From the NCBI RefSeq assembly GCF_000016745.1, contig NC_009483.1, forward strand, positions 1,650,001 through 1,682,000: 32,000 bases of DNA, given 5' to 3'. Under the pieces are notes generated by a model, which searched no databases, was not told the DNA's origin, and saw nothing but the letters and a program-made list of their open reading frames with translations. Position 1 is the stretch's first letter, and each line of letters begins with the position of its first letter. The stretch is from Geotalea uraniireducens Rf4. Its GTDB lineage: Bacteria > Desulfobacterota > Desulfuromonadia > Geobacterales > Geobacteraceae. This document shows positions 5,813 through 19,812 of this stretch, piece after piece. A program made the position numbers and the translations under genes.

Positions 5813-6577
5813 ATGGACCGTGAAAAAAGTTCATACGCTGTTCAAGCCGTTGAAAATGCACTCGACATCCTTGAGACGCTCGCCGAGGAAACTCCGGATG
5901 GGACGCTGCCGTATCTGGCAAAAAAACTGGGGATTAGCAGGAATAAAGCATTTCGATTATTAGCAACTTTAGAAAATAGGGGCCTGGTCGAAAAAGAAGA
6001 GTGGAGCGGGAACTACCGGCTTGGGCTTTCTACCGTAGAGCTGGCGCAACGATTCCTGAAAAACATAAGCCTGATCAAGCATGCCCATCCGGTCATGGAG
6101 GGGCTTGTCAGGAGGCATGACGAGGCTGTTTACATGACCGTGCTGCGTGGGAGCGAGGTGCTTTTCCTCGACATGGTCGATTGCGATCAGCAGATAAAGG
6201 CTGCGCCCCTGGTCGGGAAAAGGTTCCCTTTTTTCACCAATGCAGCGGGTAAGGCAATAAAAGCCCTGGAATCGAGGGATTTGCTGGAAAAGTTCTTCCA
6301 TCGCCGCAATAAGGACATTCCGGACCTGGCCGGGCTTGAGGTCGAACTGGACACCATTCGCGAAAAAGGGGTTGCCGTTGACAGCGGAGGTCTTGGCGAG
6401 GGGATTGTCAGTGTTGCCGTTGCTGTAAGGGATTATGCTGGAAAGGTTGTTGGCGCCCTTACCATGCTGGGCCCATCGTTTCGCATGGTCGCCAGCCGTC
6501 TTGAAAACGAAATTATCCCGTCGCTGTGCGATGGGGCTGAAATGCTTTCCATGAAATTCGGCTATGCCAGGATGTGA
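5813..6577 (+). CDS. IclR-family transcriptional regulator
   Basis: 254 aa. The N-terminal winged HTH is AVENALDILETLAEE...LAKKLGISRNKAFRLLATLE. A C-terminal IclR effector domain follows. Confidence 0.9.
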   Translation: MDREKSSYAVQAVENALDILETLAEETPDGTLPYLAKKLGISRNKAFRLLATLENRGLVEKEEWSGNYRLGLSTVELAQRFLKNISLIKHAHPVMEGLVRRHDEAVYMTVLRGSEVLFLDMVDCDQQIKAAPLVGKRFPFFTNAAGKAIKALESRDLLEKFFHRRNKDIPDLAGLEVELDTIREKGVAVDSGGLGEGIVSVAVAVRDYAGKVVGALTMLGPSFRMVASRLENEIIPSLCDGAEMLSMKFGYARM

Positions 6578-6697
6578 GTAGGAAACGTATCATGGATAAA
6601 AAAAATTACGAAAGGGGGGTGGCTTAGAAAATTCTTGTACATGAGGCGTGAAACGCTTCCTTCTAATGGTTATCTTACTATGAAAGGAGTAACTACC

Positions 6698-7006
6698 ATG
6701 GCAGAAAGACAGTATGACTGGGCGGCGATAGCCAAAAACCCAAAATTTGTAGAACTCCACCACAAAAAAACCGTATTTCTTTTCGGTTGGTGGATTTTTT
6801 CATCCGTATTTTATTTTCTCCTCCCAATCGGCGCGGCATATACGCCGGGACTCTTCAAGATCAAGATCATCAGCAACATTAACTTCGGTTATCTGTTCGC
6901 TCTCTCCCAGTTCTTTGTTTCCTGGGGGATTGCACTGTATTATTCACATGTGGCGAACAAGGATTTTGACCGGCTTACCCGCGAACTGGTAGACGAACTC
7001 AAGTAA
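6698..7006 (+). CDS. yjcH: DUF485 (YjcH-like) small inner-membrane protein
   Basis: MAERQYDWAAIAKNPKFVELHHKK followed by 2 TM segments. It sits immediately upstream of actP, as in the E. coli acs-yjcH-actP operon. AAAGGAG lies 8 nt upstream of the ATG at 6698. Confidence 0.85.
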   Translation: MAERQYDWAAIAKNPKFVELHHKKTVFLFGWWIFSSVFYFLLPIGAAYTPGLFKIKIISNINFGYLFALSQFFVSWGIALYYSHVANKDFDRLTRELVDELK

Positions 7007-7022
7007 AGGAGGACTAAAAAAC

Positions 7023-9002
7023 ATGAAAAAATTATTTGTTGCGTTGACTTTAGCCCTCTCATTGGGCACCATCGCCTACGCCGCAGAGCCGGCAAAGGCT
7101 CCTGCCGGTGCTCCGGCCGCTCCGGCCGCCACTGCGCCAACTACTACACAGGCTGCTCCTGCAGCCGCCACGGCAGCCTCTCCCACTGCCGCCCCGGTAG
7201 CAGCCAAGGCCGCAGCCCCAGCGCAGACGAAGATCAAGGCCAATAAAGCCATCACCATCGGCATGTTCGCTATCATTATTGCCGCTACCATGTGCGTCGT
7301 CGTCTGGGCTGCAAAGCAGACCAAGACGGCGGCCGATTTCTATGCAGCCGGCGGCGGGATCACCGGCACCCAAAACGGTTGGGCCATCGCCGGTGACTAC
7401 ATGTCGGCGGCCTCGTTCCTGGGTATTTCGGGCCTCATCTCCCTCTACGGCTATGACGGATTCATGTATTCGGTCGGCTGGCTGGTGGCCTACATCACCG
7501 TGCTGCTGATCGTTGCCGAGCCGTGCCGGAATGCGGGTAAATACACCCTTGGCGACATTCTTTCCTTCAGGACCGACCCGAAACCGGTGCGCGCCATAGC
7601 GGCAATTTCGACAGTTGCGGTTTCCACATTCTACCTCACCGCCCAGATGGTCGGTGCAGGCAAGCTCATGCAGCTGCTCCTTGAAATCCCCTATAAAACC
7701 GCCATCATCGGCGTCGGCTGTCTCATGGTCGTCTACGTAGTGTTCGGCGGCATGACCGCCACCACCTGGGTACAGATCATCAAGGCCGGTCTGCTCATGA
7801 GCGGCGCATTCCTCCTCTCCATTCTGGTCATGCTCAAGTCCGGGATGAACCCGTTTCAGTTTTTCCAGGATATCGTCAGCAGCACCAACATCCAGGACCA
7901 TGTACAGATCAACGTCCTGAAAGACGTGGTGAAAAAAGACGGGTTCGATTACGGCCAGCGGTTCCTCGAACCAGGCCTGTTTCTGAAGAATCCGCTCGAT
8001 CAGATATCACTCGGTATGGCGCTGGTGCTCGGTACTGCCGGCATGCCGCACATCCTCATGCGCTTCTTTACCGTCCCCACTGCCCAGGCAGCACGTAAGT
8101 CGGTCGTTATCGCCATGTTCATTATCGGCTCCTTCTATATTCTGACCACGCTGCTCGGCTTCGGCGCTGCAATCCATGTTACGCCGCAGAACATCATGGG
8201 CGTTGACAAGGGTGGCAACATGGCCGCCATGATGCTGGCGCAGAAACTGGGCGGCGATATCGCTCCGATAGTCGGCGACATTTTCCTCGCTTTCCTCTGC
8301 GCAGTTGCCTTCGCGACGATCCTTGCCGTTGTTTCCGGTCTGGTGCTTGCCGCGTCCGCGGCGATCGCCCATGACATCTATGTAAACGTCATCAAGGACG
8401 GCCATGCTGACCAGCACGAGCAGGTAATGGCTGCACGTATTACCTCGTTATGTGTCGGCGCAGTGGCCATCGTCATCGGTATCGCTGCAGAGAAGCAGAA
8501 CGTTGCCCACCTGGTGGCGCTGGCGTTCGCGGTTGCTTCCTCCGGCAACCTGCCGGTTGTTGTTCTTACCCTCTTCTGGAGGAAGTTCAATACCGCCGGT
8601 GTTATTTCCGGTCTGCTGGTCGGAACAATCGCTTCCATCGGCCTTGTTATGGTATCGCCCAACATGACCTACCCGAACAAGGTTGCCGATGACGCCAAGA
8701 AGGTTTATATGGCGCTGGAGAAGAAGGCCGCTGACGGCAAGGTTCTCAGTGAAAAAGACCTGAAGACCATTACCGACAAAAAGGTAGAAGAAGTCAAGAA
8801 CCGCGGCGGCAAATCGATCATGGGGCTGGATAAACCGCTCTTCGATCTGAAAAACCCCGGCATCATCTCCATACCGCTCGGCTTTATCGCTGCCATACTC
8901 GGTTGCCTGGCATTCCCGAGCAGGCGTTCCGAGGAGATGTTCGACGAACTCTATGTTCGGCAGAATACCGGTATCGGTATGGCCAAGGCCGTTGAACACT
9001 AA
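7023..9002 (+). CDS. actP: Cation/acetate symporter ActP (solute:sodium symporter family)
   Basis: Long blocks match E. coli ActP from memory: FYAAGGGITG.QNG.AIAGDYMSAASFLGISG, AQMVGAGKL, TWVQIIKA, GTAGMPHILMRFFTV and AVAFATILAVV. It has an extra Ala/Pro-rich N-terminal spacer. Confidence 0.93.
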   Translation: MKKLFVALTLALSLGTIAYAAEPAKAPAGAPAAPAATAPTTTQAAPAAATAASPTAAPVAAKAAAPAQTKIKANKAITIGMFAIIIAATMCVVVWAAKQTKTAADFYAAGGGITGTQNGWAIAGDYMSAASFLGISGLISLYGYDGFMYSVGWLVAYITVLLIVAEPCRNAGKYTLGDILSFRTDPKPVRAIAAISTVAVSTFYLTAQMVGAGKLMQLLLEIPYKTAIIGVGCLMVVYVVFGGMTATTWVQIIKAGLLMSGAFLLSILVMLKSGMNPFQFFQDIVSSTNIQDHVQINVLKDVVKKDGFDYGQRFLEPGLFLKNPLDQISLGMALVLGTAGMPHILMRFFTVPTAQAARKSVVIAMFIIGSFYILTTLLGFGAAIHVTPQNIMGVDKGGNMAAMMLAQKLGGDIAPIVGDIFLAFLCAVAFATILAVVSGLVLAASAAIAHDIYVNVIKDGHADQHEQVMAARITSLCVGAVAIVIGIAAEKQNVAHLVALAFAVASSGNLPVVVLTLFWRKFNTAGVISGLLVGTIASIGLVMVSPNMTYPNKVADDAKKVYMALEKKAADGKVLSEKDLKTITDKKVEEVKNRGGKSIMGLDKPLFDLKNPGIISIPLGFIAAILGCLAFPSRRSEEMFDELYVRQNTGIGMAKAVEH

Positions 9003-9028
9003 CAAGTGGTTGTATATGTGATAGAATT

Positions 9029-9057
9029 GGGGAAGGCTTGCCTTCCCCATTTTTTTA
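9029..9057 (+). terminator. Rho-independent terminator after actP
   Basis: GGGGAAGG cttg CCTTCCCC followed by ATTTTTTTA. It overlaps the track ORF start at 9038, which argues for the later start (9071) of the next gene. Confidence 0.8.
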
Positions 9058-9070
9058 TGGAAATAGAACG

Positions 9071-10300
9071 ATGCCCCATGGAAACATATTAGTGCAGGAA
9101 TCTTCTGCTGAGGTCCTGGACAACGTCATTGCGAGGGTGAGGGATTTTATGCCTCTGCTTGAGAGGGGGGAGACCCGGCGTTTGCTCCATTCTCTCATCG
9201 GTGGTCTGGACCGGGAGATGGTGTGGATGCAGACTTTGTCTGCACGGGAGACCGATCTTCGGCAACAGGTTGTCGTCGCCACAGAATACCACCTTTTGAA
9301 GGGGGTTCACGACGCGCTGAATGCCCTGGAGATGGAACGATTCCTGAAAACCCTCTCGGTTCCCGCCCTGCACAAAAACTGCACCGAATACCGGGATGTC
9401 CTGGCAGGCCGTGCGTTGGAGCTGGTTGCGCAAGAGATGGAATCTTCCGGCAAGGGCGCGCCGCCGCTTTCGTTTGCCCTTATCAGCATGGGGAGCGACG
9501 GTCGGGAAGAACAGACACTCATCACTGACCAGGATTACCTGGTCGTTTACGAAGATGGCGGTGGCGAGGCTGCTGACGACTATTTCCGCGAATTTTCCGA
9601 GCTTCTCGTGGAGAGGTTGGCGGAGGTCGGTTTCAAGAAATGCACAGGCGATATAATGCCGAGCAATCCCACCTGGCGCGGCTCTCTCTCCCAATGGAAG
9701 AAACGCCTCCTGGCGATTGTCCGTTACGAATTTGCGGATTACGCAAAAAACCTCATGGATCTCATCGTCCTTTCCGATGCCCGTTATGTTGCCGGTGACC
9801 GGGAACTGGCGTCCAACCTCGTAAGAAGCATCCGCAGCTTGCAGCAGGATTATTTCCACGTTCTGTGGGGAATGGCCAAGGCCGCCACCGAGATGAAAGT
9901 GGCGCTCGGCTTCCTGAAGAGGCTCTGGACCGAAGGAAGCGGGGAACACAAGGGGGAGTTCAATCTGAAGCTCCTCGCCTGGGCTCCGCTGGTCATGAAT
10001 GTCCGCATTCTTGCCATCAACCAGGCGGTTCCCGCGACCAGCACGCTGCAGCGCATAGAGCTTCTCGAAAAGGAGAAGAGCTTTTCCACTACCATGGCAG
10101 GCGGCCTCAAAGACGCCTACCACATCCTCACCCGGCACCGCATTCTGCTGCAGATCAAGGTAATAAAGGGAATCGCGAAGGACTCCTACCACCTGAACCC
10201 TTATCAGTTGCCCACTGCAGAGCGGGAACGCATCCGCCATGCCCTCCTTCGCATCGAAGAACTGCAGAAAACCATTCACGTCAATTTCTCCATCATGTAG
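9071..10300 (+). CDS. DUF294-type putative nucleotidyltransferase (GlnD-like NTase domain plus DUF294_C)
   Basis: SFALISMGSDGREEQTLITDQDYLVVYEDGG is the DUF294 NTase motif. The C-terminal half is helical. From memory, DUF294 proteins often neighbour actP/acs. This one lacks the usual cNMP/CBS sensor domains. Confidence 0.75.
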   Translation: MPHGNILVQESSAEVLDNVIARVRDFMPLLERGETRRLLHSLIGGLDREMVWMQTLSARETDLRQQVVVATEYHLLKGVHDALNALEMERFLKTLSVPALHKNCTEYRDVLAGRALELVAQEMESSGKGAPPLSFALISMGSDGREEQTLITDQDYLVVYEDGGGEAADDYFREFSELLVERLAEVGFKKCTGDIMPSNPTWRGSLSQWKKRLLAIVRYEFADYAKNLMDLIVLSDARYVAGDRELASNLVRSIRSLQQDYFHVLWGMAKAATEMKVALGFLKRLWTEGSGEHKGEFNLKLLAWAPLVMNVRILAINQAVPATSTLQRIELLEKEKSFSTTMAGGLKDAYHILTRHRILLQIKVIKGIAKDSYHLNPYQLPTAERERIRHALLRIEELQKTIHVNFSIM

Positions 10301-10375: not shown

Positions 10376-10510
10376 TTAGCCACGAATGACACGAATAAAC
10401 ACTAATGTTTTTAACCGCTTGTAAAGTCTTGAGTAGTCACCGATCTGGTGAGTGTCTTCTGCATCACAAGAGCTTGTATATTCGTGCAAATTCGTGAAAT
10501 TCGTGGTTAA
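10376..10510. repeat. About 135-bp palindromic element with CACGAAT/ATTCGTG repeat arms
   Basis: Left end TTAGCCACGAATGACACGAAT. Right end ATTCGTGCAAATTCGTGAAATTCGTGGTTAA, which is three 10-bp-phased direct repeats. The terminal 12-mers are reverse complements with one mismatch. Confidence 0.65.
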
Positions 10511-10593: not shown

Positions 10594-12561
10594 ATGCACA
10601 GGTATCTGTTCAACTTCATGCTCAATCTGAAGCTCCGCTGGAAGCTGCTCGTGGTGGTGTTGCCGCTGGTTATCATTCCCATTTTCCTGGTTGGCGGTGT
10701 AATCGGCTACATATCGACCCAGCAGGCCTATCTCGGCATCACCCAGACGAGTAAGGCCGATCTGGAGCACATGTCGAGCTTTACCATCGATCTGATCAAC
10801 TCCCACCGCCAGCAGTTTCAGGTATACAAGAAGGACAAGGAACGGAGCTTCAATCTGGAGTTGGCGACCCTCACCAACCTGTCCTACAATCTGGTCGAAG
10901 CGGAGCAGCGCCAGTTCAGGAGCGGCCGCATAGATTTATTGACGGCCCGCCAGGAAGCGCGCAAAGCCCTGAAAAAGGTGAATGTCGGGGAAACCGGCTA
11001 TATCTACGCCATGTCAAGCAGGGGTGATCTCAAGGTCCACATCGCCCGTGAGGATGAGAACGTTTATAATGAGAAAGATGAAAACGGCCGCTACTTCATC
11101 CGCGAGATGTGCGAGAAGGCGCTCAAGTCGAAGCCGGGCGAGGTGCTATATATCGTTTACCCCTGGCGCAATGCGGTTTTGGGTGATAAATATCCCCGGA
11201 AAAAGGTGGTGGCGTACCGCTATTTCAAGGACTGGGACTGGATCATCGCCACCGGCGGTTATCTGGAGGAGACCTACGAGGATGTCGCCTTTGAAAAGCG
11301 TTCCTTTGCCGAACTGAAGGAGAAGATCAAGGGCAAGCAGGTCGGCAAGACCGGCTATATCTTCTGCATGGACAGCAAGGGGAACTTCACTGTCCATCCC
11401 GATGGGGAAGGGAAGAACTTTTATGGTGCGAAGGATAGCGACGGCAACCATTTCATTCGGGAGATGTGTCTCAATAAGAGCGGTTGGATTCGCTACCCCT
11501 GGAAAAACGCTGGTGAAAAAGCGCCGCGGATGAAGATCGTTAAATATGCGTATTTTCAGCCCTGGGACTGGATTGTGGCGGTCGGTTCCTACGAGGATGA
11601 ATTCTACCAGGAGGCCAAGGATATAAAGCGGCGCATCCTTGAAAGCATGGTGGTGCTGACCTTTTTTGTCTGCATGATTGCCGTGGCGCTGGTTTTTCTC
11701 GCTTCCAAGGTGCTGACCGATCCGATAAACCACATGATCGCCGTTATCCGCAAGGTCAAGCAGGGACGGCTCAGCGAGCGGATGGAAGTCGACACGAACG
11801 ACGAGCTGGGGGAGCTGGCACTGGCCTTCAATCGCATGACCCAGATCATAAAAAACAACAAGGAGATGGAGGCAAACCTGGCGCAACAGGGAAAAATGGC
11901 GTCTTTGGGGGTTCTTTCCTCCGGCGTGGCCCATGAAATCAATAATCCGCTCGGGGTGATACTCGGTTACGCCGGATACCTTGAAGGGAAGATGAGTGCC
12001 GACGATCCCAACTTCCGCTTCATTCACGAGATCAAACGCGAAAGCAAGCGCTGCAAGAAGATCGTCCAGGATCTCCTGAGTTACGCCCGGACGCCGAAGC
12101 CGACCCTGGAGGAGACCGACATCAACGAGCTTCTGGAGCAGATCGTCGACTTTGCCGCCAACCATACCGACATGCACCATGTTTCGGTGGTGAAGGAGTT
12201 TGCCAAGGATCTGCCGCGGATCATGGCGGACGGGGACCAGTTGCGCCAGGTGGCCATCAACCTGATTCTCAATGCTGGCGCCGCCATGCAGAGCGGCGGC
12301 ACGCTGGTCGTGCGCACCATGCTCGATGACGAGGGGTATATCCATCTGATCTTCAGCGACAACGGCGCTGGTATTTCCGCCGAGAACCTGGAAAAGATAT
12401 TCGAGCCGTTCTTTACCACCAAGACCAAGGGGACCGGCCTGGGGCTTGCGATCACCAGGCAGATCATCGATCAGCACCAGGGAAAAATCGCCATAGAGAG
12501 CGAGCCGGGGAAAGGGACGACGGTGACGGTAAAGCTGCCGGTGGAGAGGGAAGAGTTTTGA
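10594..12561 (+). CDS. Sensor histidine kinase with two tandem periplasmic Cache-like modules, HAMP, HisKA and HATPase
   Basis: 655 aa with TM1, then a duplicated block ([18 protein letters not shown]...YPWRN...[10 protein letters not shown] and [18 protein letters not shown]...YPWKN...[10 protein letters not shown]). TM2 and HAMP ([13 protein letters not shown]) follow. H-box is [12 protein letters not shown], then N, G1 and G2 boxes (DNGAGI, GTGLGL). Confidence 0.92.
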
Positions 12562-12631
12562 ATGCCGGAGATGAGGAAAGCTAATGGGATGTTGCGTGTG
12601 AGCGTCAACCCGTTTGCCTCAAAATGCGCAC

Positions 12632-12667
12632 TTGAATGAACCATATATTGTACGTTATAATGTACAA
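12632..12667 (+). promoter_or_regulatory. Candidate sigma-70 promoter with overlapping operator for phd-parE
   Basis: TTGAAT (12632-12637), an 18-nt spacer, then TATAAT (12656-12661). The inverted repeat TTGTAC-N8-GTACAA (12648-12667) brackets the -10 box. Confidence 0.5.
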
Positions 12668-12690
12668 AAAACAGTTATGCGAGGTGCCGT

Positions 12691-12972
12691 ATGCAAAGGT
12701 TGAAAATTGATCAGGATATCAGGCCGATGTCCGAGTTCAGGACGGGGATCGCTTCGTTTCTTAAGCAGGTGCATGACACCAAACGACCTATGATTATTAC
12801 CCAGCATGGTAAAGGCGTAGCCGTTTTACTTGATGTGAACGAATACGAATCCATGCAGGAAAAAATCGAACTTCTTCAGGATATACAAACGTCCGTCAGC
12901 CAGTTGGAAAGCGGCGCCGGCATGGAAAATAATGATGCAAAGGCAATGGTGCTGAAGCGAGCTGGAAAATGA
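12691..12972 (+). CDS. Phd/YefM-family antitoxin
   Basis: 93 aa. MSEFRTGIASFLKQVHDTKRPMIITQHGKGVAVLLDVNEYESMQE is a typical Phd/YefM fold signature. ATGA overlap with the following toxin gene. Confidence 0.85.
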   Translation: MQRLKIDQDIRPMSEFRTGIASFLKQVHDTKRPMIITQHGKGVAVLLDVNEYESMQEKIELLQDIQTSVSQLESGAGMENNDAKAMVLKRAGK

Positions 12973-13265
12973 GGATAGTCTGGTCCCCTCTCGCAGTAGA
13001 TAGGGCATCTGAAATAGCCGGATATATAGCCCAGGACAATCCAACCGCAGCAGAAAATTGGGTAAATGCAGTCTTTGCACAAGTTGGGCGGTTAAAGTCG
13101 TTTCCCGATAGGGGGCGCGTTGTGTCGGAAATCAATAACGATAGTTTTCGAGAACTGATTTACGGAAATTATAGAATTATTTACCGAATAGAAGAAAAAC
13201 AGGTCTCTATTCTTACGATTCGGCATGGAAAGCAGATTTTACCTGTGGATGAAATTCTTGGATAA
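12969..13265 (+). CDS. ParE/RelE-superfamily toxin
   Basis: 98 aa. WSPLAVDRASEIAGYIAQDNPTAAENW...FPDRGRVV...RELIYGNYRIIYRIEEKQVSILTIRHG is the ParE pattern. 4-nt overlap with the antitoxin. Confidence 0.85.
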   Translation: MRIVWSPLAVDRASEIAGYIAQDNPTAAENWVNAVFAQVGRLKSFPDRGRVVSEINNDSFRELIYGNYRIIYRIEEKQVSILTIRHGKQILPVDEILG

Positions 13266-13390
13266 ACAGGTCGCGGAGGAGTTTCTCCTTCAAAGTCGGC
13301 CGAAACTGACGTAGTCAGGGGAGCATTGAATAACCGGCAGGTGCAAAATGATCTGCTTCGTCGTATAACCTCTCCAAAAGGAGGCCCAGG

Positions 13391-13717
13391 ATGAAAAGAA
13401 AGTTCAATGGCAAACGGCAGGCAGCGAAAATGGTCCTGGGAGTTGCCTGGTACGAGCCGGAGCAATGGGAGAGGCTGTTGGATATTTCCACGGACCGCGA
13501 CGAGCTTGAAGCCACCCATGCCGAGTGGGAACGGAATGCCGTTCACTCCATGAAGAGCTTATCGCGTGGCGGGGTCTGGCTGGAAAAGGTGTCAGTAGAT
13601 CTGGAGGAGCTTGTGCAGTGGTGTCTCTCCCGGAACCTCCCTGTGGATGGCAAGTCGCGGGCTGCGTTTGCTTCGGAAAAGCTGCGGCAAGGGTCGGAAG
13701 AGCACAAGTTGGGTTGA
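13391..13717 (+). CDS. Hypothetical protein (108 aa)
   Basis: AAAGGAGG lies upstream of the ATG. The protein is a soluble helical type (WYEPEQWERLL...ELVQWC). I cannot name a family. Confidence 0.6.
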   Translation: MKRKFNGKRQAAKMVLGVAWYEPEQWERLLDISTDRDELEATHAEWERNAVHSMKSLSRGGVWLEKVSVDLEELVQWCLSRNLPVDGKSRAAFASEKLRQGSEEHKLG

Positions 13718-13804
13718 GGCGTGCTTGCCTGACCCCTACGGCTTTCCTCTGGATGTTGAGCAATAAAGAAATACTGAGATACATCAATTCCAATCGAGGT
13801 ACTT

Positions 13805-14305
13805 ATGAAGGCAGCAATATCTGGTTTGTTATTCCTATCTGTTTACCTTCCGTCGTTTTGCTTTGCTTCTGATCTATCCCAGCGAGCAGCTGCTGAGAAG
13901 TTGATGATGGAAACAAGGATAGACAAGATGTTAGAAAAATACACCCTAGAAACCGAAGAAAAACTGAAAAAGCAACTACTTGCAGTAGCTCCCAAGGACA
14001 CGGACAGGCAGATAGCAGAGAAGTATTTTGACAATATCAACAAAATTATTAACCGCGAATTGGGGTGGCAAAAAATCAAAGATGAAGTAGTTGCAGTGTA
14101 TGCTGATCTTTATACTAAGGATGAGCTTAATGAAATGAGTAAGTTCTTTTCTAGTCCTGCAGGCCAGAAATTTATTGCTAAAGCTTCTGAGTTGAATGAA
14201 AGGCTCATATCTGTACTGAGAGTTAAAATGCAAGGCTGTCTTCCTGAAGTCAAAAAACTTGCAGGAGATATGGAAAAAGAGATGGCAAACAAGAATATTC
14301 GGTAG
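13805..14305 (+). CDS. Secreted DUF2059-like protein
   Basis: Signal peptide MKAAISGLLFLSVYLPSFCFA, then YTKDELNEMSKFFSSPAGQKFIAK, which resembles the DUF2059 core motif from memory. The gene is visibly AT-rich. Confidence 0.65.
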   Translation: MKAAISGLLFLSVYLPSFCFASDLSQRAAAEKLMMETRIDKMLEKYTLETEEKLKKQLLAVAPKDTDRQIAEKYFDNINKIINRELGWQKIKDEVVAVYADLYTKDELNEMSKFFSSPAGQKFIAKASELNERLISVLRVKMQGCLPEVKKLAGDMEKEMANKNIR

Positions 14306-14428
14306 CTCAACCAGGAGGCGGCACGCGGGCTACGCTAACGCTTCGCCGGTGCGCCCCCGCACCGTTGGATGATAACCAGCAAAAAATGATGTACATTTTC
14401 GAAGCGGCATTAGGCAAGAGGGAGTGGA

Positions 14429-14629
14429 ATGAACAAATTGTTATGCTTCTGCTATGTCTTCATGCTTTCGCTGTGCTTAATGATCTCTGGGTGCAGTTGG
14501 AAAACCTGCAACCAGGATAACCCTGACGAGTACCACAAATATTGGGAAAACGAGGAGAACAGGAAGAATAGCATCCTCTACCCCATTACTGACGAATACG
14601 AGCAAGAGCGCAAAGGCTTAAAACGGTAA
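14429..14629 (+). CDS. Small putative lipoprotein (66 aa)
   Basis: MNKLLCFCYVFMLSLCLMISGCSW has the lipobox ISGC. GAGGGAG lies upstream. Otherwise unrecognised. Confidence 0.5.
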   Translation: MNKLLCFCYVFMLSLCLMISGCSWKTCNQDNPDEYHKYWENEENRKNSILYPITDEYEQERKGLKR

Positions 14630-14835
14630 CAGGCCTCAAATACATAGGTGTCAAGTCTCCAGTGACGATGAGAGCGTTTCCCCTCCAGATGCTGGGGCCA
14701 TTTTCATGGCACTGGCCGAGGATTGCCAAGTATTTTGACTGGCTCACAGCGGGCGTGTTCGCTTCACTGGGAGTCAGGCTGGCTGTGGCGCAAAGATGAA
14801 TCGTCTGTAATTGAGGGTTTTCTGAAAGCCCCCAT

Positions 14836-14974: not shown

Positions 14975-16357
14975 GTGTCCGACAAGAAACGAATCATGGT
15001 GATCGACAACGAGGAGGGGCTGTGCCGGATGATGGAGGCGGTCCTTCTCGATAACGGATATGCGGTAAAGGCTTTTCTCCGGTCGTTTGAGGCTGTTGAG
15101 GCATTTGTGGCCGGTCAATGGGACCTGGTGGTCACCGACATAAAGATGCCTGGCATGGATGGTCTTGAGGTGTTGCAGAAGATAAAGATCAAGGACCCCA
15201 CCATTCCGGTAATCATGGTGACCGCCTATGCCACGGTGGAGATGTCGATCCAGGCCCTGCGCCGGGGGGCCTACGATATGCTGACCAAGCCGTTCGAGCC
15301 GGAGGAGCTCCTCTACCGCGTGAAAAACGCCCTCAAGCATACCCAGCTCCTGGAGGAAAACCGGGAGCTGCGGGAAGAGCTGGTGGGTAAATTCCGTTTC
15401 GACAACATCATCGGCGCTTCGGACGGGCTGAAGGCCGTGCTGGAGCGGGTGGAAAAGGTGGCGATCCGCGACACCTCCGTCCTGATAACCGGGGAGTCCG
15501 GGACCGGCAAGGAGCTCATCGCCCAGGCGATCCACTACAATTCCCTGCGCAAGGAGAAAAAATTCGTCGCCATCAACTGCGGGGCGCTCCCCGAGTCGCT
15601 TCTGGAGAGTGAACTGTTCGGCTACAAGAAGGGGGCCTTTACCGGCGCCAAGGAGAACCGCCAGGGGCTTCTGGAGGCGGCCGATGGCGGCACCCTGTTC
15701 CTTGACGAGGTGGGGAATCTTCCCATGAACGTGCAGAAGACCCTGCTCCGCTTCCTGCAGGAGCAGGAATTCCATCGCATCGGCGATACCACGCCGACCA
15801 AGGTCGATGTGCGGATACTCTCCGCGACCAATTCCGACCTGAAGGCTGCGGTGAGAAGCGGAGAGTTCCGTGAAGACCTCTACTACCGGTTGAACGTGGT
15901 CAACATCCACTTGCCGCCGCTGCGGGAGCGGAAAGCGGACATCCCTCTCTTGGCTGCCCACTTCATTGCGTTGCAGAACAAGAAATTCGGCACCATGGTG
16001 CAAGGTCTTTCTCCCGAAGCCCTCGAAGCTGCCCTCGGCTATAGCTGGATGGGGAATATACGCCAGATGAAAAACGTCATCGAGGCTTCACTGGCCATGG
16101 AGAGCGGTGATTACATCAGCCTGCCGGTAATTTCCCAGTTTATTGAAGTTCCCCTGACAGAGGACGGAACCGGGATTGTTGCTGAAGAGGGTGAATATAC
16201 CAGGGCCTTGTCACGCTTTGAAATCGAATATCTGAAGGGATTATTGCGCAAAAACAACGGCAACATCGAGGCCGCTGCCCGCGAGGCGGGAATGAACATG
16301 GCCACCATTTACCGGAAGATAAAAAAATACAACATCAAGAAAGAGGATTATTCGTAA
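14975..16357 (+). CDS. Sigma-54-dependent response regulator (NtrC family: REC - AAA+ - Fis HTH)
   Basis: GTG start with GAGG 8 nt upstream. Receiver DLVVTDIKMPGMDG, Walker A GESGTGKE, sigma-54 contact loop GAFTGA, and C-terminal HTH NIEAAAREAGMNMATIYRKIKKY. Confidence 0.95.
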   Translation: MSDKKRIMVIDNEEGLCRMMEAVLLDNGYAVKAFLRSFEAVEAFVAGQWDLVVTDIKMPGMDGLEVLQKIKIKDPTIPVIMVTAYATVEMSIQALRRGAYDMLTKPFEPEELLYRVKNALKHTQLLEENRELREELVGKFRFDNIIGASDGLKAVLERVEKVAIRDTSVLITGESGTGKELIAQAIHYNSLRKEKKFVAINCGALPESLLESELFGYKKGAFTGAKENRQGLLEAADGGTLFLDEVGNLPMNVQKTLLRFLQEQEFHRIGDTTPTKVDVRILSATNSDLKAAVRSGEFREDLYYRLNVVNIHLPPLRERKADIPLLAAHFIALQNKKFGTMVQGLSPEALEAALGYSWMGNIRQMKNVIEASLAMESGDYISLPVISQFIEVPLTEDGTGIVAEEGEYTRALSRFEIEYLKGLLRKNNGNIEAAAREAGMNMATIYRKIKKYNIKKEDYS

Positions 16358-16399: not shown

Positions 16400-16445
16400 T
16401 TCGCATTTGTGCAAAAAACATGAAAACCCTTCGCATCGCTGCAAA
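16400..16445 (+). promoter_or_regulatory. Two candidate enhancer (UAS) sites, TTCGCA-N4-TGCAAA, 30 bp apart
   Basis: TTCGCATTTGTGCAAA at 16400-16415 and TTCGCATCGCTGCAAA at 16430-16445. These are imperfect 16-bp palindromes about 270-300 bp upstream of the -24/-12 element. Confidence 0.5.
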
Positions 16446-16565
16446 ACCTATTTTTCCGTTTGTCCCCATTTCGTAACCCACTTAAATCACTGCTTTTTGT
16501 TGTACTGTGATTCAACAACGATAAAAAATTTCGTTTACACTAAAAAGTGGATTCCGCAAAACTTG

Positions 16566-16581
16566 TTTGCATTCTTGCAAA
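16566..16581 (+). promoter_or_regulatory. Third candidate enhancer site, perfect palindrome TTTGCA-N4-TGCAAA
   Basis: TTTGCATTCTTGCAAA, about 100 bp upstream of the -24/-12 element. Same motif as the two sites at 16400-16445. Confidence 0.5.
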
Positions 16582-16679
16582 AGCCCGCCTGCTCCCTTCT
16601 CTTTAATGTTTGTATTCACTGTATTGTAACATACTTAAATATAAGGGTAAATCCGTAGATATTCGCAATTTTACCGCTT

Positions 16680-16695
16680 TGGTACGGTGGTTGCT
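16680..16695 (+). promoter_or_regulatory. Sigma-54 (-24/-12) promoter
   Basis: TGGTACGGTGGTTGCT compared with the consensus TGGCAC-N5-TTGC. Spacing is correct, there is one mismatch (C to T), and GG and GC are in place. It lies 125 nt upstream of the ORF at 16821 and just downstream of an NtrC-family gene. Confidence 0.7.
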
Positions 16696-16727
16696 AATAG
16701 TGTATACAGTTACTCCTTCATTGTAGG

Positions 16728-16769
16728 GGATGATGCCGGAGAGGTTGGGAGGCTGATCCGGCGTCATCC
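16728..16769 (+). other. 5' leader hairpin (13-bp stem, 16-nt loop)
   Basis: GGATGATGCCGGA ... TCCGGCGTCATCC, with one G-U pair. It sits between the sigma-54 promoter and the first ORF. No U-tract follows, so it is not a canonical terminator. Confidence 0.5.
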
Positions 16770-16820
16770 TGTACGAAAAACAAAAAGGCCTGCGGGCTTT
16801 AGAAACCATATGAGGTCCCC

Positions 16821-17006
16821 ATGAAGGTTGAGACAGTCTGCCCCTTCTACGGAAAAAACGATGATTTTTGCGATGTCGGTTGTGGATATATTTCGCCGCA
16901 CGATGTCAATCAGATAATTAGGTTCTGTAGTTGCCGATACAAGGAGTGTTTTAAGTATCAGGAGCTGTCGGACCGTCTGCCCAAAGAGATTTTCGAACCA
17001 GCTTGA
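16821..17006 (+). CDS. Small Cys-rich protein (61 aa), unknown family
   Basis: GAGG lies 5 nt upstream. The protein has six Cys in the pattern C-x9-C-x3-C-x14-C-x-C-x4-C plus one His, suggesting a metal or Fe-S site. It is the first gene after the sigma-54 promoter. Confidence 0.65.
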   Translation: MKVETVCPFYGKNDDFCDVGCGYISPHDVNQIIRFCSCRYKECFKYQELSDRLPKEIFEPA

Positions 17007-17029
17007 TGCTGATTTACAAGGAGGATGCC

Positions 17030-17152
17030 ATGCTTTACAACCTGTGCCTTCATTTTAACGGAATGTATTTAACTGCAGCGATTACGTTGGCAGCAGCTTT
17101 TGTTCTTATTTCAATTATAAAGGAGAAAAAAGATGAGCGAAAAAGAGCTTGA
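17030..17152 (+). CDS. Unannotated 40-codon membrane mini-protein
   Basis: Not in the ORF track because it is under 60 aa. AAGGAGG lies 5 nt upstream of the ATG at 17030. Translation is MLYNLCLHFNGMYLTAAITLAAAFVLISIIKEKKDERKRA, one TM helix with a basic tail. Its end overlaps the next ORF by 20 nt. Confidence 0.45.
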   Translation: MLYNLCLHFNGMYLTAAITLAAAFVLISIIKEKKDERKRA

Positions 17153-17384
17153 ACTATTGGCAAGAATAGAAGATCTGGAGCGGCACACCTGGCGTAACAG
17201 CGCTATCCTGAGGGCCGTCGCAATGGTTGCTTTTACCGCTTTTTTCGGCATTATCATCGCCTCCGGCGTTGTCGGCGGCGGTCGCGGCAGCCACTGGTCG
17301 GGGCCGGCCTGGAACACCATGTGGCTCTATGGCCTCTTTGCTGCGAATGCGGTGTCGATGTTCTGGACCACGCATAAAGAGTAG
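17133..17384 (+). CDS. Small membrane protein (83 aa), unknown family
   Basis: AAAGGAG lies 7 nt upstream. An N-terminal charged helix is followed by two hydrophobic segments (AVAMVAFTAFFGIIIASGVV and MWLYGLFAANAVSMFW). Confidence 0.6.
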   Translation: MSEKELELLARIEDLERHTWRNSAILRAVAMVAFTAFFGIIIASGVVGGGRGSHWSGPAWNTMWLYGLFAANAVSMFWTTHKE

Positions 17385-17469
17385 GGGCCGGCCCAAGTGC
17401 CCGCCCGGATACCGGCATCCAGACAGTGATGCCCCCTACCGAATTGAACTTTAACTGGAGGATAGAACA

Positions 17470-18519
17470 ATGCCAATGAAATTTACAAATATAGTTCTGC
17501 TGCTGGTCGTGGTAACGCTCTGTGCCGCGTTTTCCATGCGCATTTTTCAGGGCCTGGACGAGATGATGGGGGACCAATACTGGGTTGTCGATACCACCCA
17601 GGGAGATCATGGCTGGTATGCCATGGGACTCCTTCCTCATGTGACGAAGGTGGCCAAGGATGTGGTCAAGGCCGCGAACACCGACCCCACAATTAAAGAA
17701 AAGTACATCATTTATGCACAGAGCGGCGACTTTGCCGGTAACTCCGTGTACGGCATCTGTTTCGGCATTCCGCTCATCATGTACCTGATCTGGTTCGCCT
17801 TCATCCTCGGCTTCCCCGACCGGGTCGATCCTTACCTGCTGCCGAGAAGGATCTTCACCATTGCCGCGGTCATCATCTGTTCGGTTCTGGTCAACCTCTT
17901 CCTGATGAGAATCGCTGCAGACTTTGCCCGCGACCCGATGGCCCGCATCGCCAATGTTGCAGGCAACCACTCATCGCTTCTTTTCCACAACGCAGGCATC
18001 TGGTTCGCCATTCTTTTCTCGGCTCTCGGCACTCATAACCACAGCGCCCAGGAATCCGCCGCACCCGATAGCCGCAACTGGCAGACCCAGGCCAACGAGA
18101 AGTTCTCCTGGATGTTTACCCTGCTGGCAGCAGTGACTGTGCTGGAAGTGGCTCTGGTGAGTAACAAGCTGGCTCTGCCGGACGCAGCCGTCGACTATTC
18201 CGTCTGGATCATCTGGGTGGTCATCTTCATGCGCATGTACGGCTTCTCTCCCAAATACTGGATGAAGCGTGGTCGCGGCATCGCCATCATGGTCGTCGGC
18301 ACCATCCTCACCCTCCCTGTTTTCTACCTGCTGGAGAGGGCAACCGGCACGCTCGGCGCCGGCTTTGCCTCACCGATCCTGACCAAGGCGCTTGGGCCCG
18401 AGAACGCCAATATCGGCCTCTCTCTCATGGTTTCCATCTACCTCATCTTCTGGATGGAGTTTGCCACGGCAATCAGGATGAACGGCCCGGCCAAGGCAGC
18501 GGCGGTGGAGAAGCATTGA
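17470..18519 (+). CDS. Polytopic membrane protein (349 aa, about 8 TM), unknown family
   Basis: GGAGGA lies upstream. There are multiple long hydrophobic segments and a roughly 75-aa loop after TM1. I recognise no motif. Confidence 0.8.
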   Translation: MPMKFTNIVLLLVVVTLCAAFSMRIFQGLDEMMGDQYWVVDTTQGDHGWYAMGLLPHVTKVAKDVVKAANTDPTIKEKYIIYAQSGDFAGNSVYGICFGIPLIMYLIWFAFILGFPDRVDPYLLPRRIFTIAAVIICSVLVNLFLMRIAADFARDPMARIANVAGNHSSLLFHNAGIWFAILFSALGTHNHSAQESAAPDSRNWQTQANEKFSWMFTLLAAVTVLEVALVSNKLALPDAAVDYSVWIIWVVIFMRMYGFSPKYWMKRGRGIAIMVVGTILTLPVFYLLERATGTLGAGFASPILTKALGPENANIGLSLMVSIYLIFWMEFATAIRMNGPAKAAAVEKH

Positions 18520-18524
18520 CGGCG

Positions 18525-18552
18525 GTCGATGGTCGATAGTCGATAGTCGATG
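18525..18552 (+). repeat. Four tandem 7-bp repeats GTCGAT(G/A)
   Basis: GTCGATG GTCGATA GTCGATA GTCGATG, starting 6 nt after the stop codon at 18517-18519. Confidence 0.8.
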
Positions 18553-18559
18553 GTAAAAA

Positions 18560-18590
18560 ACGGCAGCGAGAGATCGCTGTCGTTTTTTTT
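18560..18590 (+). terminator. Rho-independent terminator of the sigma-54 operon
   Basis: ACGGCAGCGA gaga TCGCTGTCGT followed by T8. An A6 run precedes the stem. Confidence 0.8.
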
Positions 18591-18652: not shown

Positions 18653-19426
18653 ATGAAGTCTCCCGAATTTATCGTCTCAGCATGGCTCTTTCCCGTCCTT
18701 TTCCTTACCGGCATGTTCGCCGGCCTGGTCGATTCCATTGCCGGCGGCGGAGGGCTCATTACCATCCCGGTATTGCTCGGTCTCGGCATGCCGCCACAGT
18801 ACGCCCTCGGCACCAACAAGCTGCAGTCAACCTTCGGCTCTGCCAGCGCCATGGCCCACTTTGCCCATGCGGGGGTCATCAGCCTGAAGGAAAGTCTGGC
18901 CGGCGTTGTCTGGACCGCCTGCGGCGCCGGTCTCGGCGCTTATACGGTGCAGCTCCTTGATCCCGGTTTCCTGCGACGGGTAATTCCCTATCTGCTGCTG
19001 GCCATAGCCCTCTATACCCTCCTTTCTCCCAGATTGGGGCATGAAGACGTTCATCCGCGCCTGGAGCGCAAGGTCTTTTACCTCTTTTTCGGCCTTCTGC
19101 TCGGTTTCTACGATGGGTTTCTCGGCCCGGGAACCGGCTCTTTCTGGGTTATCGCCCTGATGCTCGGTCTCGGCCACAACATGAAAAAGGCCACCGGCTA
19201 CACAAAGCTGATGAATTTCATCAGCAACATTGTTTCCCTGGTCGTGTTCGTTGCCGGGGGGCATGTCTATTACGGGGCAGGTCTTGCCATGGGGGTGGGG
19301 CAGGCTGTTGGGGCCAGGGTAGGATCAAGGCTGGTCCTGGCAAGGGGGGCTCGCTTTGTCCGGCCGATTTTTATAGCGGCGGTGTTTGCAGTAACTGCCA
19401 AGCTACTGTATGAGAACTACCGTTGA
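18653..19426 (+). CDS. TauE/SafE (DUF81) family anion/sulfite exporter-like permease
   Basis: 257 aa, hydrophobic throughout. VDSIAGGGGLITIPVLL and the repeated G-rich TM pattern are typical of TauE/SafE. Confidence 0.88.
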   Translation: MKSPEFIVSAWLFPVLFLTGMFAGLVDSIAGGGGLITIPVLLGLGMPPQYALGTNKLQSTFGSASAMAHFAHAGVISLKESLAGVVWTACGAGLGAYTVQLLDPGFLRRVIPYLLLAIALYTLLSPRLGHEDVHPRLERKVFYLFFGLLLGFYDGFLGPGTGSFWVIALMLGLGHNMKKATGYTKLMNFISNIVSLVVFVAGGHVYYGAGLAMGVGQAVGARVGSRLVLARGARFVRPIFIAAVFAVTAKLLYENYR

Positions 19427-19491: not shown

Positions 19492-19812
19492 TCAGGGCTT
19501 GTGGTGGCAGCGGGTGCAGTTGTCCTTGATCTGGAAAGCCTTTTCTCCGTTGTGGCATCTGCCGCAATACTTGCCTGCATAGAGATCATTCATGGTTATC
19601 TTTACCCCCCCTTTTTTCATCTCCGGGAAGATGACGGGGTTATGGCAATCTTTGCAGGTCAGCCCGGCATTTTTGTGCGTTTGGCCATCGAAAACAACGG
19701 CCCCCATCGGGCTCCCGCTATATTCCAGTTTTTTGTCGGCTTGCACGGCAAGGGCAGCGCCGCTAAAAGAGAATGCCAGGATAACGCCAAACATGAATGT
19801 TTTCGTTTTCAT
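19492..19812 (-). CDS. Periplasmic trihaem c-type cytochrome (c7/c3-like)
   Basis: Signal peptide MKTKTFMFGVILAFSFSGAALA. Three CXXCH motifs (CKDCH, CGRCH, CTRCH) lie in about 84 mature residues. Confidence 0.9.
   Translation of the reverse strand: MKTKTFMFGVILAFSFSGAALAVQADKKLEYSGSPMGAVVFDGQTHKNAGLTCKDCHNPVIFPEMKKGGVKITMNDLYAGKYCGRCHNGEKAFQIKDNCTRCHHKP

Follow-up and report, generated by a model that had tools for sequence, protein, structure and literature searches.

Geobacter-type bacteria in sediments, at bioremediation sites and in bioelectrochemical systems obtain their electrons mainly from acetate. The AtoS/AtoC two-component system of Escherichia coli exerts sigma-54-dependent control over short-chain fatty-acid catabolism. 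The acetate assimilation operon of E. coli is acs-yjcH-actP (PMC6498577), and in Geobacter-type bacteria acetate uptake has so far been ascribed to ActP-like Apl symporters only (PMC7894505). Here, we describe the control region and operon Gura_1429-1431, including an additional 40-aa gene, of Geotalea uraniireducens Rf4. The locus is located in a stretch of 32,000 nucleotides (NC_009483.1, positions 1,650,001 to 1,682,000 of the forward strand) which is referred to as the window and numbered from its first letter. We read the locus, with somewhat more confidence than doubt, as a path leading from a carboxylate sensor through sigma-54 to a new membrane complex linked to the uptake of acetate or other monocarboxylates.

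An earlier description made from the letters of the window, hereafter the original prediction, had listed palindromes, a promoter, a structured leader, four open reading frames with Shine-Dalgarno (SD) sequences and a terminator, and all of these were found again where it had placed them. Beyond that description, the core of the system was traced to the genes of the 83-aa and 349-aa proteins, this pair was detected in a few very distant lineages, and its genomic context points to acetate or monocarboxylate uptake.

Features of the locus

The elements of the proposed system are, in the order of the window:

10594..12561, + strand: sensor histidine kinase with periplasmic double Cache, HAMP, HisKA and HATPase domains; probable partner of the activator
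14975..16357, + strand: NtrC-family sigma-54 enhancer-binding response regulator (the activator) with REC, AAA+ (GAFTGA) and Fis-type HTH domains
16400..16415, no strand: enhancer palindrome 1, TTCGCATTTGTGCAAA, from the motif scan; orthologous sites in 72/79 loci
16430..16445, no strand: enhancer palindrome 2, TTCGCATCGCTGCAAA, 30 bp after site 1
16566..16581, no strand: enhancer palindrome 3, TTTGCATTCTTGCAAA, 114 bp upstream of the -24 element
16582..16679, no strand: AT-rich spacer between enhancer and promoter, presumed looping region
16680..16695, + strand: sigma-54 (-24/-12) promoter, TGGTACGGTGGTTGCT; consensus match, conserved
16706..16820, + strand: 5' leader with GTTACTCCTT at 16709-16718, a long hairpin at 16721-16776 and a small hairpin at 16785-16800
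16821..17006, + strand: gene of the 61-aa soluble Cys-rich protein (Gura_1429), SD GAGG
17030..17152, + strand: gene of the 40-aa single-pass membrane peptide, SD AGGAGG
17133..17384, + strand: gene of the 83-aa protein with an N-terminal cytoplasmic helix and two transmembrane (TM) helices, SD AGGAG; small subunit of the core pair
17470..18519, + strand: gene of the 349-aa membrane protein, SD GGAGG; large subunit of the core pair
18555..18590, + strand: intrinsic terminator (stem-loop and T-run) closing the operon

The comparison set consisted of 80 Geobacterales genome loci encoding the 349-aa protein, with 1.35 Mb of locus sequence. The genes for the Cys-rich, the small and the large protein occurred together in all 79 Geobacterales loci with enough upstream sequence. 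In the databases the 61-aa, 83-aa and 349-aa products are ABQ25630 (Gura_1429), ABQ25631 and ABQ25632, and the RefSeq entry for the 40-aa product is WP_268741740.1; all four are annotated as hypothetical. The four open reading frames were as tightly packed as had been described, each with an SD sequence, and those of the 40-aa and 83-aa products overlap by 20 nt.

The gap between the 83-aa and 349-aa genes is 85 nt long in the window (17385-17469), is G+C-rich and contains the short palindromes GGGCCGGCCC and CCGGATACCGG; in most other loci it measures only about 13 nt. The strong terminator of the original prediction was recovered as a 15-bp stem with a 4-nt loop (18555-18588), followed by the T-run TTTTTTTT, which is the make-up of an intrinsic terminator. 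A tandem repeat of the heptamer GGTCGAT (4.4 copies, 18524-18554) separates the stop codon of the 349-aa gene from the terminator stem.

The core pair in distant lineages

An exhaustive HMMER pass over 1.84 billion representative proteins gave 21 matches to the large protein, five of which were diverged full-length clusters with 55, 39, 37, 34 and 32% identity. A further profile-based homologue search returned the close Geobacterales proteins again and no new ids. Directly upstream of every distant homologue, and often overlapping it, was a gene for a homologue of the 83-aa protein of about 82 aa, and the Cys-rich and 40-aa genes were absent beside all of them. Since the pair alone was kept in the distant lineages, the ancient unit is taken to be the small and the large protein. 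In the lineage with 55% identity, where the Cys-rich and 40-aa genes are absent, the C-terminus of the activator and the leader motif were the same, and three palindrome-like sites and a -24/-12 element were present as well.

The neighbours of the pair in the more distant clades were informative in three cases. In the clade with 34% identity, the genes for acetate--CoA ligase, the small and the large protein followed each other on one strand in 13 of the 13 loci with visible upstream sequence, and the ligase matched NCBIfam NF003313 with 844.7 bits (cut-off 729). This unit lies in a tetrahydrofolate-type Wood-Ljungdahl cluster (locus L099, 1289-5582 and 9100-16955) comprising formate-tetrahydrofolate ligase, FolD, a pterin-binding methyltransferase, DUF3786 and HdrA-, FlpD- and formate-dehydrogenase-like genes. 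Judged by its gene content, the cluster points to an acetogen or a syntrophic acetate oxidiser. In the clade with 37% identity, on a contig with an archaeal Hjc, a C-terminal fragment of acs was located upstream and the alpha subunit gene of an ADP-forming acetyl-CoA synthetase downstream. In the most distant clade (32% identity), the pair is directly preceded by an SfMCT-type L-lactate/monocarboxylate MFS gene (L088, 1228-2493; 432 bits, cut-off 320). The neighbours in the clade with 39% identity, found in a context of archaeal Cbf5 and EMC3/DUF106, were uninformative.

Within the Geobacterales, an SfMCT-type MFS gene was found to start after the large gene in 18 loci, at a median distance of 27 nt (94 nt in L080, for example). 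The SfMCT-type gene thus recurs beside the pair in unrelated lineages, downstream in Geobacterales and upstream in the most distant clade. In the window a cluster of IclR, DUF485, an ActP/MctC-like sodium:solute symporter (659 aa) and a DUF294 nucleotidyltransferase is located upstream of the kinase gene (5813-10300), as it is next to the kinase in many related loci too. The ActP-like gene (7023-9002) encodes an SSF domain (PF00474, E 1.4e-99). Neither a palindrome nor a sigma-54 site precedes this cluster in the window.

The four proteins

That the four products match no known family had been claimed before, and the searches agreed. Pfam and NCBIfam scans of all four matched no family, a Pfam scan of 37 members of the large-protein family gave no match, and PDB sequence and profile searches with the large, small and Cys-rich proteins returned nothing meaningful. 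Two weak Pfam candidates were rejected, namely FeoB_associated for the 40-aa peptide (E 0.04, TM segment only) and MSL2_3 for the large protein (E 0.025, 30 residues).

Homologues of the 61-aa protein were found only in Geobacterales, all annotated as hypothetical. The pattern of six cysteines was present as described, and five of them were invariant (C7, C17, C21, C36 and C43) with C38 being variable. Considered as an Fe-S or zinc-ribbon protein, it has these five invariant cysteines, yet it matched no Pfam, NCBIfam or PDB profile. Its cysteines make it probably metal-binding. The 40-aa single-TM peptide, with its SD sequence, was kept in about 60 of the 79 loci in the form M[LF]Y...TM...KEKRDERKRA, always overlapping the next gene by 20 nt, and its gene was absent from the Geomonas/Citrifermentans clade.

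The 83-aa protein was 82-100% identical across Geobacterales. The 349-aa protein was 79-95% identical across Geobacter, Geotalea, Geomonas, Citrifermentans, Oryzomonas, Trichlorobacter, Geoanaerobacter and Pelotalea, a degree of conservation unusual among membrane proteins. When the five distant homologues were included in the alignment, AlphaFold modelled the large protein confidently, with a pLDDT of 80.5 and a pTM of 0.81; with close homologues alone the pLDDT was 47.9 and the model unusable. In the former model an N-terminal TM helix is followed by a small periplasmic domain of mixed alpha/beta structure and then by about seven TM helices. Foldseek found no match to it in the PDB, the best E-value being 0.84 and the TM-scores at most 0.24. 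The top Foldseek matches were MFS proteins; an MFS fold was rejected on their E-values of 0.8-3 and TM-scores of 0.14-0.16, and Pfam gave no MFS match.

Residues invariant throughout the large-protein family include D30, D87, N142, R147, S169, K211 and D242, and no His or Cys is invariant family-wide. In the model N142, R147, K211 and D242 are predicted in or next to TM helices, a placement that fits a carboxylate site. A test for an internal repeat, N half against C half, was not significant, with a weak 'W...GF.P' echo between TM2 and TM6. The four proteins form a very small, highly conserved family without a relative in sequence, profile or solved fold, and are the novel part of the system.

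The enhancer palindromes and the sigma-54 promoter

The three palindromes reported at 16400, 16430 and 16566 were the only matches to TTYGCA-N4-TGCRAA in the window, even with one mismatch allowed. The chance expectation in the window was 0.48, and three matches were reached in 2 of 100 shuffles. Palindromes of the form TTTGCA-N4-TGCAAA were located upstream of the first cassette gene in 72 of the 79 loci, and 140 of the 170 sites in the whole comparison set lay within 500 nt upstream of that gene. In loci where three sites were found the layout recurs, with sites 1 and 2 at 29-33 bp from each other, site 3 about 125-137 bp further on and the promoter 90-116 bp later. In the window the palindromes lie 99-295 bp upstream of the -24 element, within the distance of about 80-300 bp that upstream activator sites keep.

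The element at 16680-16695, which had been described as a sigma-54 promoter with one mismatch, matched 11 of the 12 specified positions of TGGCACG-N4-TTGCW. A single -24/-12 match per window is not significant, 3.5 being expected with one mismatch. What makes it significant is that the orthologues of the gene are preceded by such an element in nearly all of the 79 loci; an element with at least 9 of 12 positions was found there in 76 of the 78 scored loci. The promoter was situated 27-60 or 66-141 nt before the first gene in the related loci. By sequence scan, no sigma-70-like promoter was found on the + strand. The spacer was AT-rich as described, the composition window spanning it (16500-16699) having 35.5% G+C. 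A GTATAC hexamer is present at 16700-16705, just past the -12 element and near the expected transcription start. The hexamer was found at the equivalent position in many loci with a short leader and in some with a long leader, the window included.

The same motifs were found at other genes as well. The palindromes and a TGGTAT-N5-TTGCT sigma-54 promoter precede a gene of the GPR1/FUN34/YaaH (SatP/AceTr) acetate-channel family in L013 (7264-7545) and L072 (7269-7562), so the regulon of the activator appears to be wider than the cassette. In L038 (1-125) a sigma-54 promoter is located before a SatP/AceTr gene, and the sequence further upstream is cut off. Of the 35 loci in which the kinase start was visible (e.g. 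L016 at 5490 and L039 at 5514), 23 had a single palindrome 58-197 nt before the kinase gene and no sigma-54 promoter with it, which suggests autoregulation. In the window no canonical palindrome precedes the kinase gene, and only TTCGTG-rich repeats were seen there at about 10480-10510.

The activator and the sensor kinase

The activator had been described as an NtrC-type protein with a GAFTGA loop just upstream of the control region. Pfam identified Response_reg (7.8e-28), Sigma54_activat (PF00158, 1.8e-73) and HTH_8 (4.4e-07), and GAFTGA was read in the translation, which together make up a sigma-54 enhancer-binding protein. The kinase matched dCache_2 (6.7e-60), HAMP, HisKA and HATPase_c. 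The best NCBIfam matches were AtoC for the activator (446 bits vs a cut-off of 714) and AtoS for the kinase (257.3 bits vs 646).

Linkage to the activator was kept in other genomes, an orthologous activator being located directly upstream of the cassette on the same strand in 29 of 68 loci and within 10 kb in 30 of the 45 loci with full flanks. The kinase gene abuts the activator gene in most related genomes, and the stretch of about 2.4 kb between them in the window therefore looks like an insertion which split a two-component operon. The G+C content is 36-49% over much of this DNA (12600-14650), which, alongside small open reading frames, encodes:

12691-12972: Phd/YefM antitoxin
12969-13265: ParE toxin
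13805-14305: DUF2059 protein

The tandem-Cache kinase of the original prediction thus has the domains attributed to it and is not adjacent to the activator in the window. Of the self-contained path from signal through sigma-54 to membrane that had been proposed, the cassette, palindromes, promoter and activator linkage proved to be conserved, and the kinase is the part that is split off in the window.

The second Cache module of the kinase aligned to four sCache_2 chemoreceptor sensor domains in the PDB (E 1.8e-08 to 2.6e-11), among them 4K08 (Adeh_3718), which is acetate-bound, and 4EXO with pyruvate modelled. Of the six residues that contact acetate in Adeh_3718, the kinase shares five (Y, H, Y, W and K) and has F in place of the sixth (W96). 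Judged by these residues, the ligand is most likely a small periplasmic carboxylate, acetate or a close C2/C3 acid.

The leader RNA

The leader with a long-stem hairpin was also recovered. Folded as 121 nt it reached -48 kcal/mol (z = -4.35), none of 200 shuffles was as stable, and the hairpin extended from 16721 to 16776. Two promoter and leader classes were distinguished across the loci. In the short-leader class, TGGCAC..TGCT, in many loci with GTATAC after it, lies about 27-60 nt ahead of the start codon. In the long-leader class, to which the window belongs, TGGTAY..GGTTGCT is followed by GTTACTCCTT at the extreme 5' end of the RNA and by the long hairpin. GTTACTCCTT and the long hairpin were found in 23 of the 25 long-leader loci, including the lineage whose large protein is only 55% identical.

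The stem sequences varied widely between loci, and the apical loop was of one of two conserved types, GGTGACGA or TTGGGAGG (TTGGGAGG in the window). Inspection shows that either loop could base-pair with a portion of the 5' motif (GUGAC with GUUAC, GGGAG with CUCCU), which suggests a possible pseudoknot. RNAalifold on a MAFFT alignment of the leaders gave a weak consensus only because the stems differ in length, and the folds of single sequences were more informative. An Rfam scan of the region matched no family. The leader may be a new cis-regulatory or stabilising RNA element.

Neighbouring genes

Past the terminator, the window contains a gene for a TauE/SafE-family membrane protein (18653-19426) and, on the opposite strand, a gene for a 106-aa c7-type multihaem cytochrome (19492-19812). 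Among the 80 related loci the TauE gene was found beside the cassette in none and the cytochrome gene in few only.

Proposed function and alternative explanations

The proposed system may be depicted as follows: The double-Cache kinase (10594-12561) would respond to a small carboxylate in the periplasm, with acetate or a closely related C2/C3 acid as the most likely ligand, and phosphorylate the NtrC-type activator (14975-16357). The activator would then bind the three TTTGCA-N4-TGCAAA palindromes, loop over the AT-rich spacer and open the sigma-54 promoter at 16680-16695. The transcript would begin near 16706 with a structured leader of 115 nt and end at the terminator (18555-18590). Its products would form an inner-membrane complex for carboxylate uptake, with the two-TM 83-aa and eight-TM 349-aa proteins as the ancient core and the 61-aa Cys-rich protein and the 40-aa peptide as Geobacterales additions. 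The core would be a new acetate/monocarboxylate permease or an obligatory membrane partner of uptake, a functional analogue of YjcH-ActP feeding activation enzymes.

The data above show the sequence elements, how they are conserved, how the genes are linked and that no known family or fold is matched. From them we infer what the kinase binds, that the activator recognises the palindromes, that transcription depends on sigma-54, that the products form a complex and that they act in transport. The parts of this proposal differ in strength. Because of its conservation the regulatory reading is well supported, and the circuit as drawn from these sequences is highly probable. A role tied to the assimilation of acetate or monocarboxylates is likely. 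The order acs-small-large is the same as in acs-yjcH-actP, and the pair is therefore read as a non-homologous analogue of YjcH-ActP; that the pair itself is the permease has a little less than an even chance. We would put forward only tentatively the widest form of the proposal. According to it, the pair would found a new family of acetate/monocarboxylate permeases with a new membrane fold, which would replace YjcH-ActP without being homologous to it and would be common to the Geobacterales and a few uncultured lineages, some with archaeal markers and some in a Wood-Ljungdahl cluster. In the Geobacterales it would have been elaborated by a metal-binding subunit and a micro-peptide, and placed under an acetate-sensing Cache kinase via sigma-54 and a structured leader RNA.

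Several observations weigh against the uptake proposal. Neither sequence nor profile nor fold links the large protein to a transporter family, so the word transporter is taken from context alone, and the loci linked to acs come from two lineages only, hence from few independent events. Known carboxylate carriers are often located beside the cassette, and these data would also suit a role that is accessory, regulatory or homeostatic. The authors of 4K08 caution that the acetate is possibly a crystallisation artefact. On the regulatory side, 15 of the 45 fully flanked loci lack an activator within 10 kb, the kinase and activator genes of the window are not adjacent and have about 2.4 kb of DNA of lower G+C content between them, no palindrome was found upstream of the ActP-like genes in the window and the related loci scanned, and a scan of the spacer for the IHF consensus gave nothing beyond chance. 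Papers on the RpoN regulon, genomes and transcriptomes, together with locus-tag searches, yielded no paper on these genes, nor G. sulfurreducens locus tags or expression data. In G. sulfurreducens, GSU1063-1066, next to the apl genes, are pilus genes.

The main rival is a plausible one, although we regard it as rather less probable: the pair would be an accessory or regulatory membrane partner, such as a co-sensor of flux, a scaffold for acetyl-CoA synthetase or a device against proton or anion load from weak acids. A further carrier might be redundant where ActP-like, SfMCT-type and SatP-type carriers lie beside the cassette or share its enhancer motif, the large protein resembles transporters neither in fold nor in sequence, and the Cys-rich protein confined to Geobacterales could be a regulatory subunit. 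However, bacteria often cluster several carriers for one substrate, and in the acs-small-large operons no other carrier is visible and the pair occupies the permease position of acs-yjcH-actP. Eight TM helices with invariant polar and charged residues predicted in or near the membrane are also more typical of a translocator than of a scaffold. The absence of the Cys-rich gene wherever the pair occurs outside the Geobacterales speaks against a second reading, in which the operon would be a small redox or metal-handling membrane module, with an Fe-S or zinc protein on a membrane anchor, induced together with carboxylate oxidation and having no action on the carboxylate itself. The five invariant cysteines, the Hdr, FlpD and formate-dehydrogenase-like genes adjoining distant loci and the c7 cytochrome gene nearby in the window would agree with such a module. 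The Hdr and formate-dehydrogenase genes, however, form a separate unit on the opposite strand, the same-strand partner being acs, and no His or Cys that could serve a haem, quinone or metal site is invariant throughout the large-protein family; we consider this module unlikely.

The direction of transport is not readable from context, one clade has an ADP-forming acetyl-CoA synthetase, able to form acetate, directly downstream of the pair, and a Wood-Ljungdahl context can also mean acetogenesis. The complex might accordingly export carboxylates or guard against weak-acid stress. Geobacterales are acetate oxidisers, however, and the co-regulated and neighbouring genes encode uptake-type carriers and the AMP-forming acs, an assimilation enzyme, which makes export slightly less likely still than the redox module. 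Least credible of all is a chance resemblance, by which the operon would be transcribed from another promoter, independently of the neighbouring activator. One match of the -24/-12 type is expected by chance per window, and the activator is not adjacent in over half of the loci. Against this reading, nearly all loci keep the element in the same position between flanks that diverge, hardly any palindromes occur away from the upstream region of the cassette, and the + strand shows no sigma-70-like site.

If the pair does belong to a further uptake system, as the uptake proposal holds, a component is missing from models of how acetate is scavenged and competed for in anoxic environments. Given the pair after acs in uncultured Wood-Ljungdahl organisms and on archaea-like contigs, the same would apply to syntrophic acetate oxidisers or acetogens. 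A new membrane-protein fold would follow from a confident model that has no relative among solved structures, and the three-site enhancer offers a clear-cut motif by which the regulon of an uncharacterised Geobacterales activator can be tested.

Comparison with known systems

The control region and its regulators most resemble AtoS/AtoC, with which they share a histidine kinase paired with an NtrC-family activator of REC-AAA+-HTH architecture, the best NCBIfam matches and the theme of short-chain carboxylates. The equivalog cut-offs were not reached, however (446 vs 714 and 257.3 vs 646 bits), the sensor is here a periplasmic double Cache, the target is not atoDAEB, and the operator consists of three copies of the 16-bp TTTGCA-N4-TGCAAA palindrome. 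The sCache_2 chemoreceptors 4K08 and 4EXO are similar to the second Cache of the kinase in the Y..H..Y.W..K contact pattern, whereas the module here is the second half of a double Cache on a histidine kinase and has F in place of W96. The control module is of the ordinary NtrC/sigma-54 kind with a new operator motif.

Among the carboxylate carriers, some SatP-type genes of Geobacterales carry the same palindromes and sigma-54 promoter, and SfMCT-type genes abut the pair in two very distant lineages. The 349-aa protein is nevertheless unrelated to both: it has no PF01184 and aligned to a Geobacterales SatP-type protein by hhalign with a probability of 0.15%, and its Foldseek matches to MFS proteins had E-values of about 1 and TM-scores of about 0.15.

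The closest likeness in organisation is to acs-yjcH-actP. A small two-TM gene stands just before a large polytopic gene, and in the distant homologues both come after an acetate--CoA ligase gene of the same orientation. A true pair of DUF485 and ActP-like genes is present in the window 8 kb upstream of the core pair. Unlike YjcH (DUF485), the 83-aa protein has no PF04341, and hhalign against the DUF485 protein of the window gave a probability of 0.1%. SSS-family carriers such as ActP have roughly 13-14 helices, whereas the large protein has about 8 predicted helices and no fold match in the PDB, and no SSF domain (PF00474) was detected in any of 37 family members at E up to 0.1. The Geobacterales also add, unlike acs-yjcH-actP, the Cys-rich protein and the 40-aa peptide. 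As far as sequence and gene order tell, the pair is organised like a known acetate permease system and is unrelated to the acetate permease proteins.

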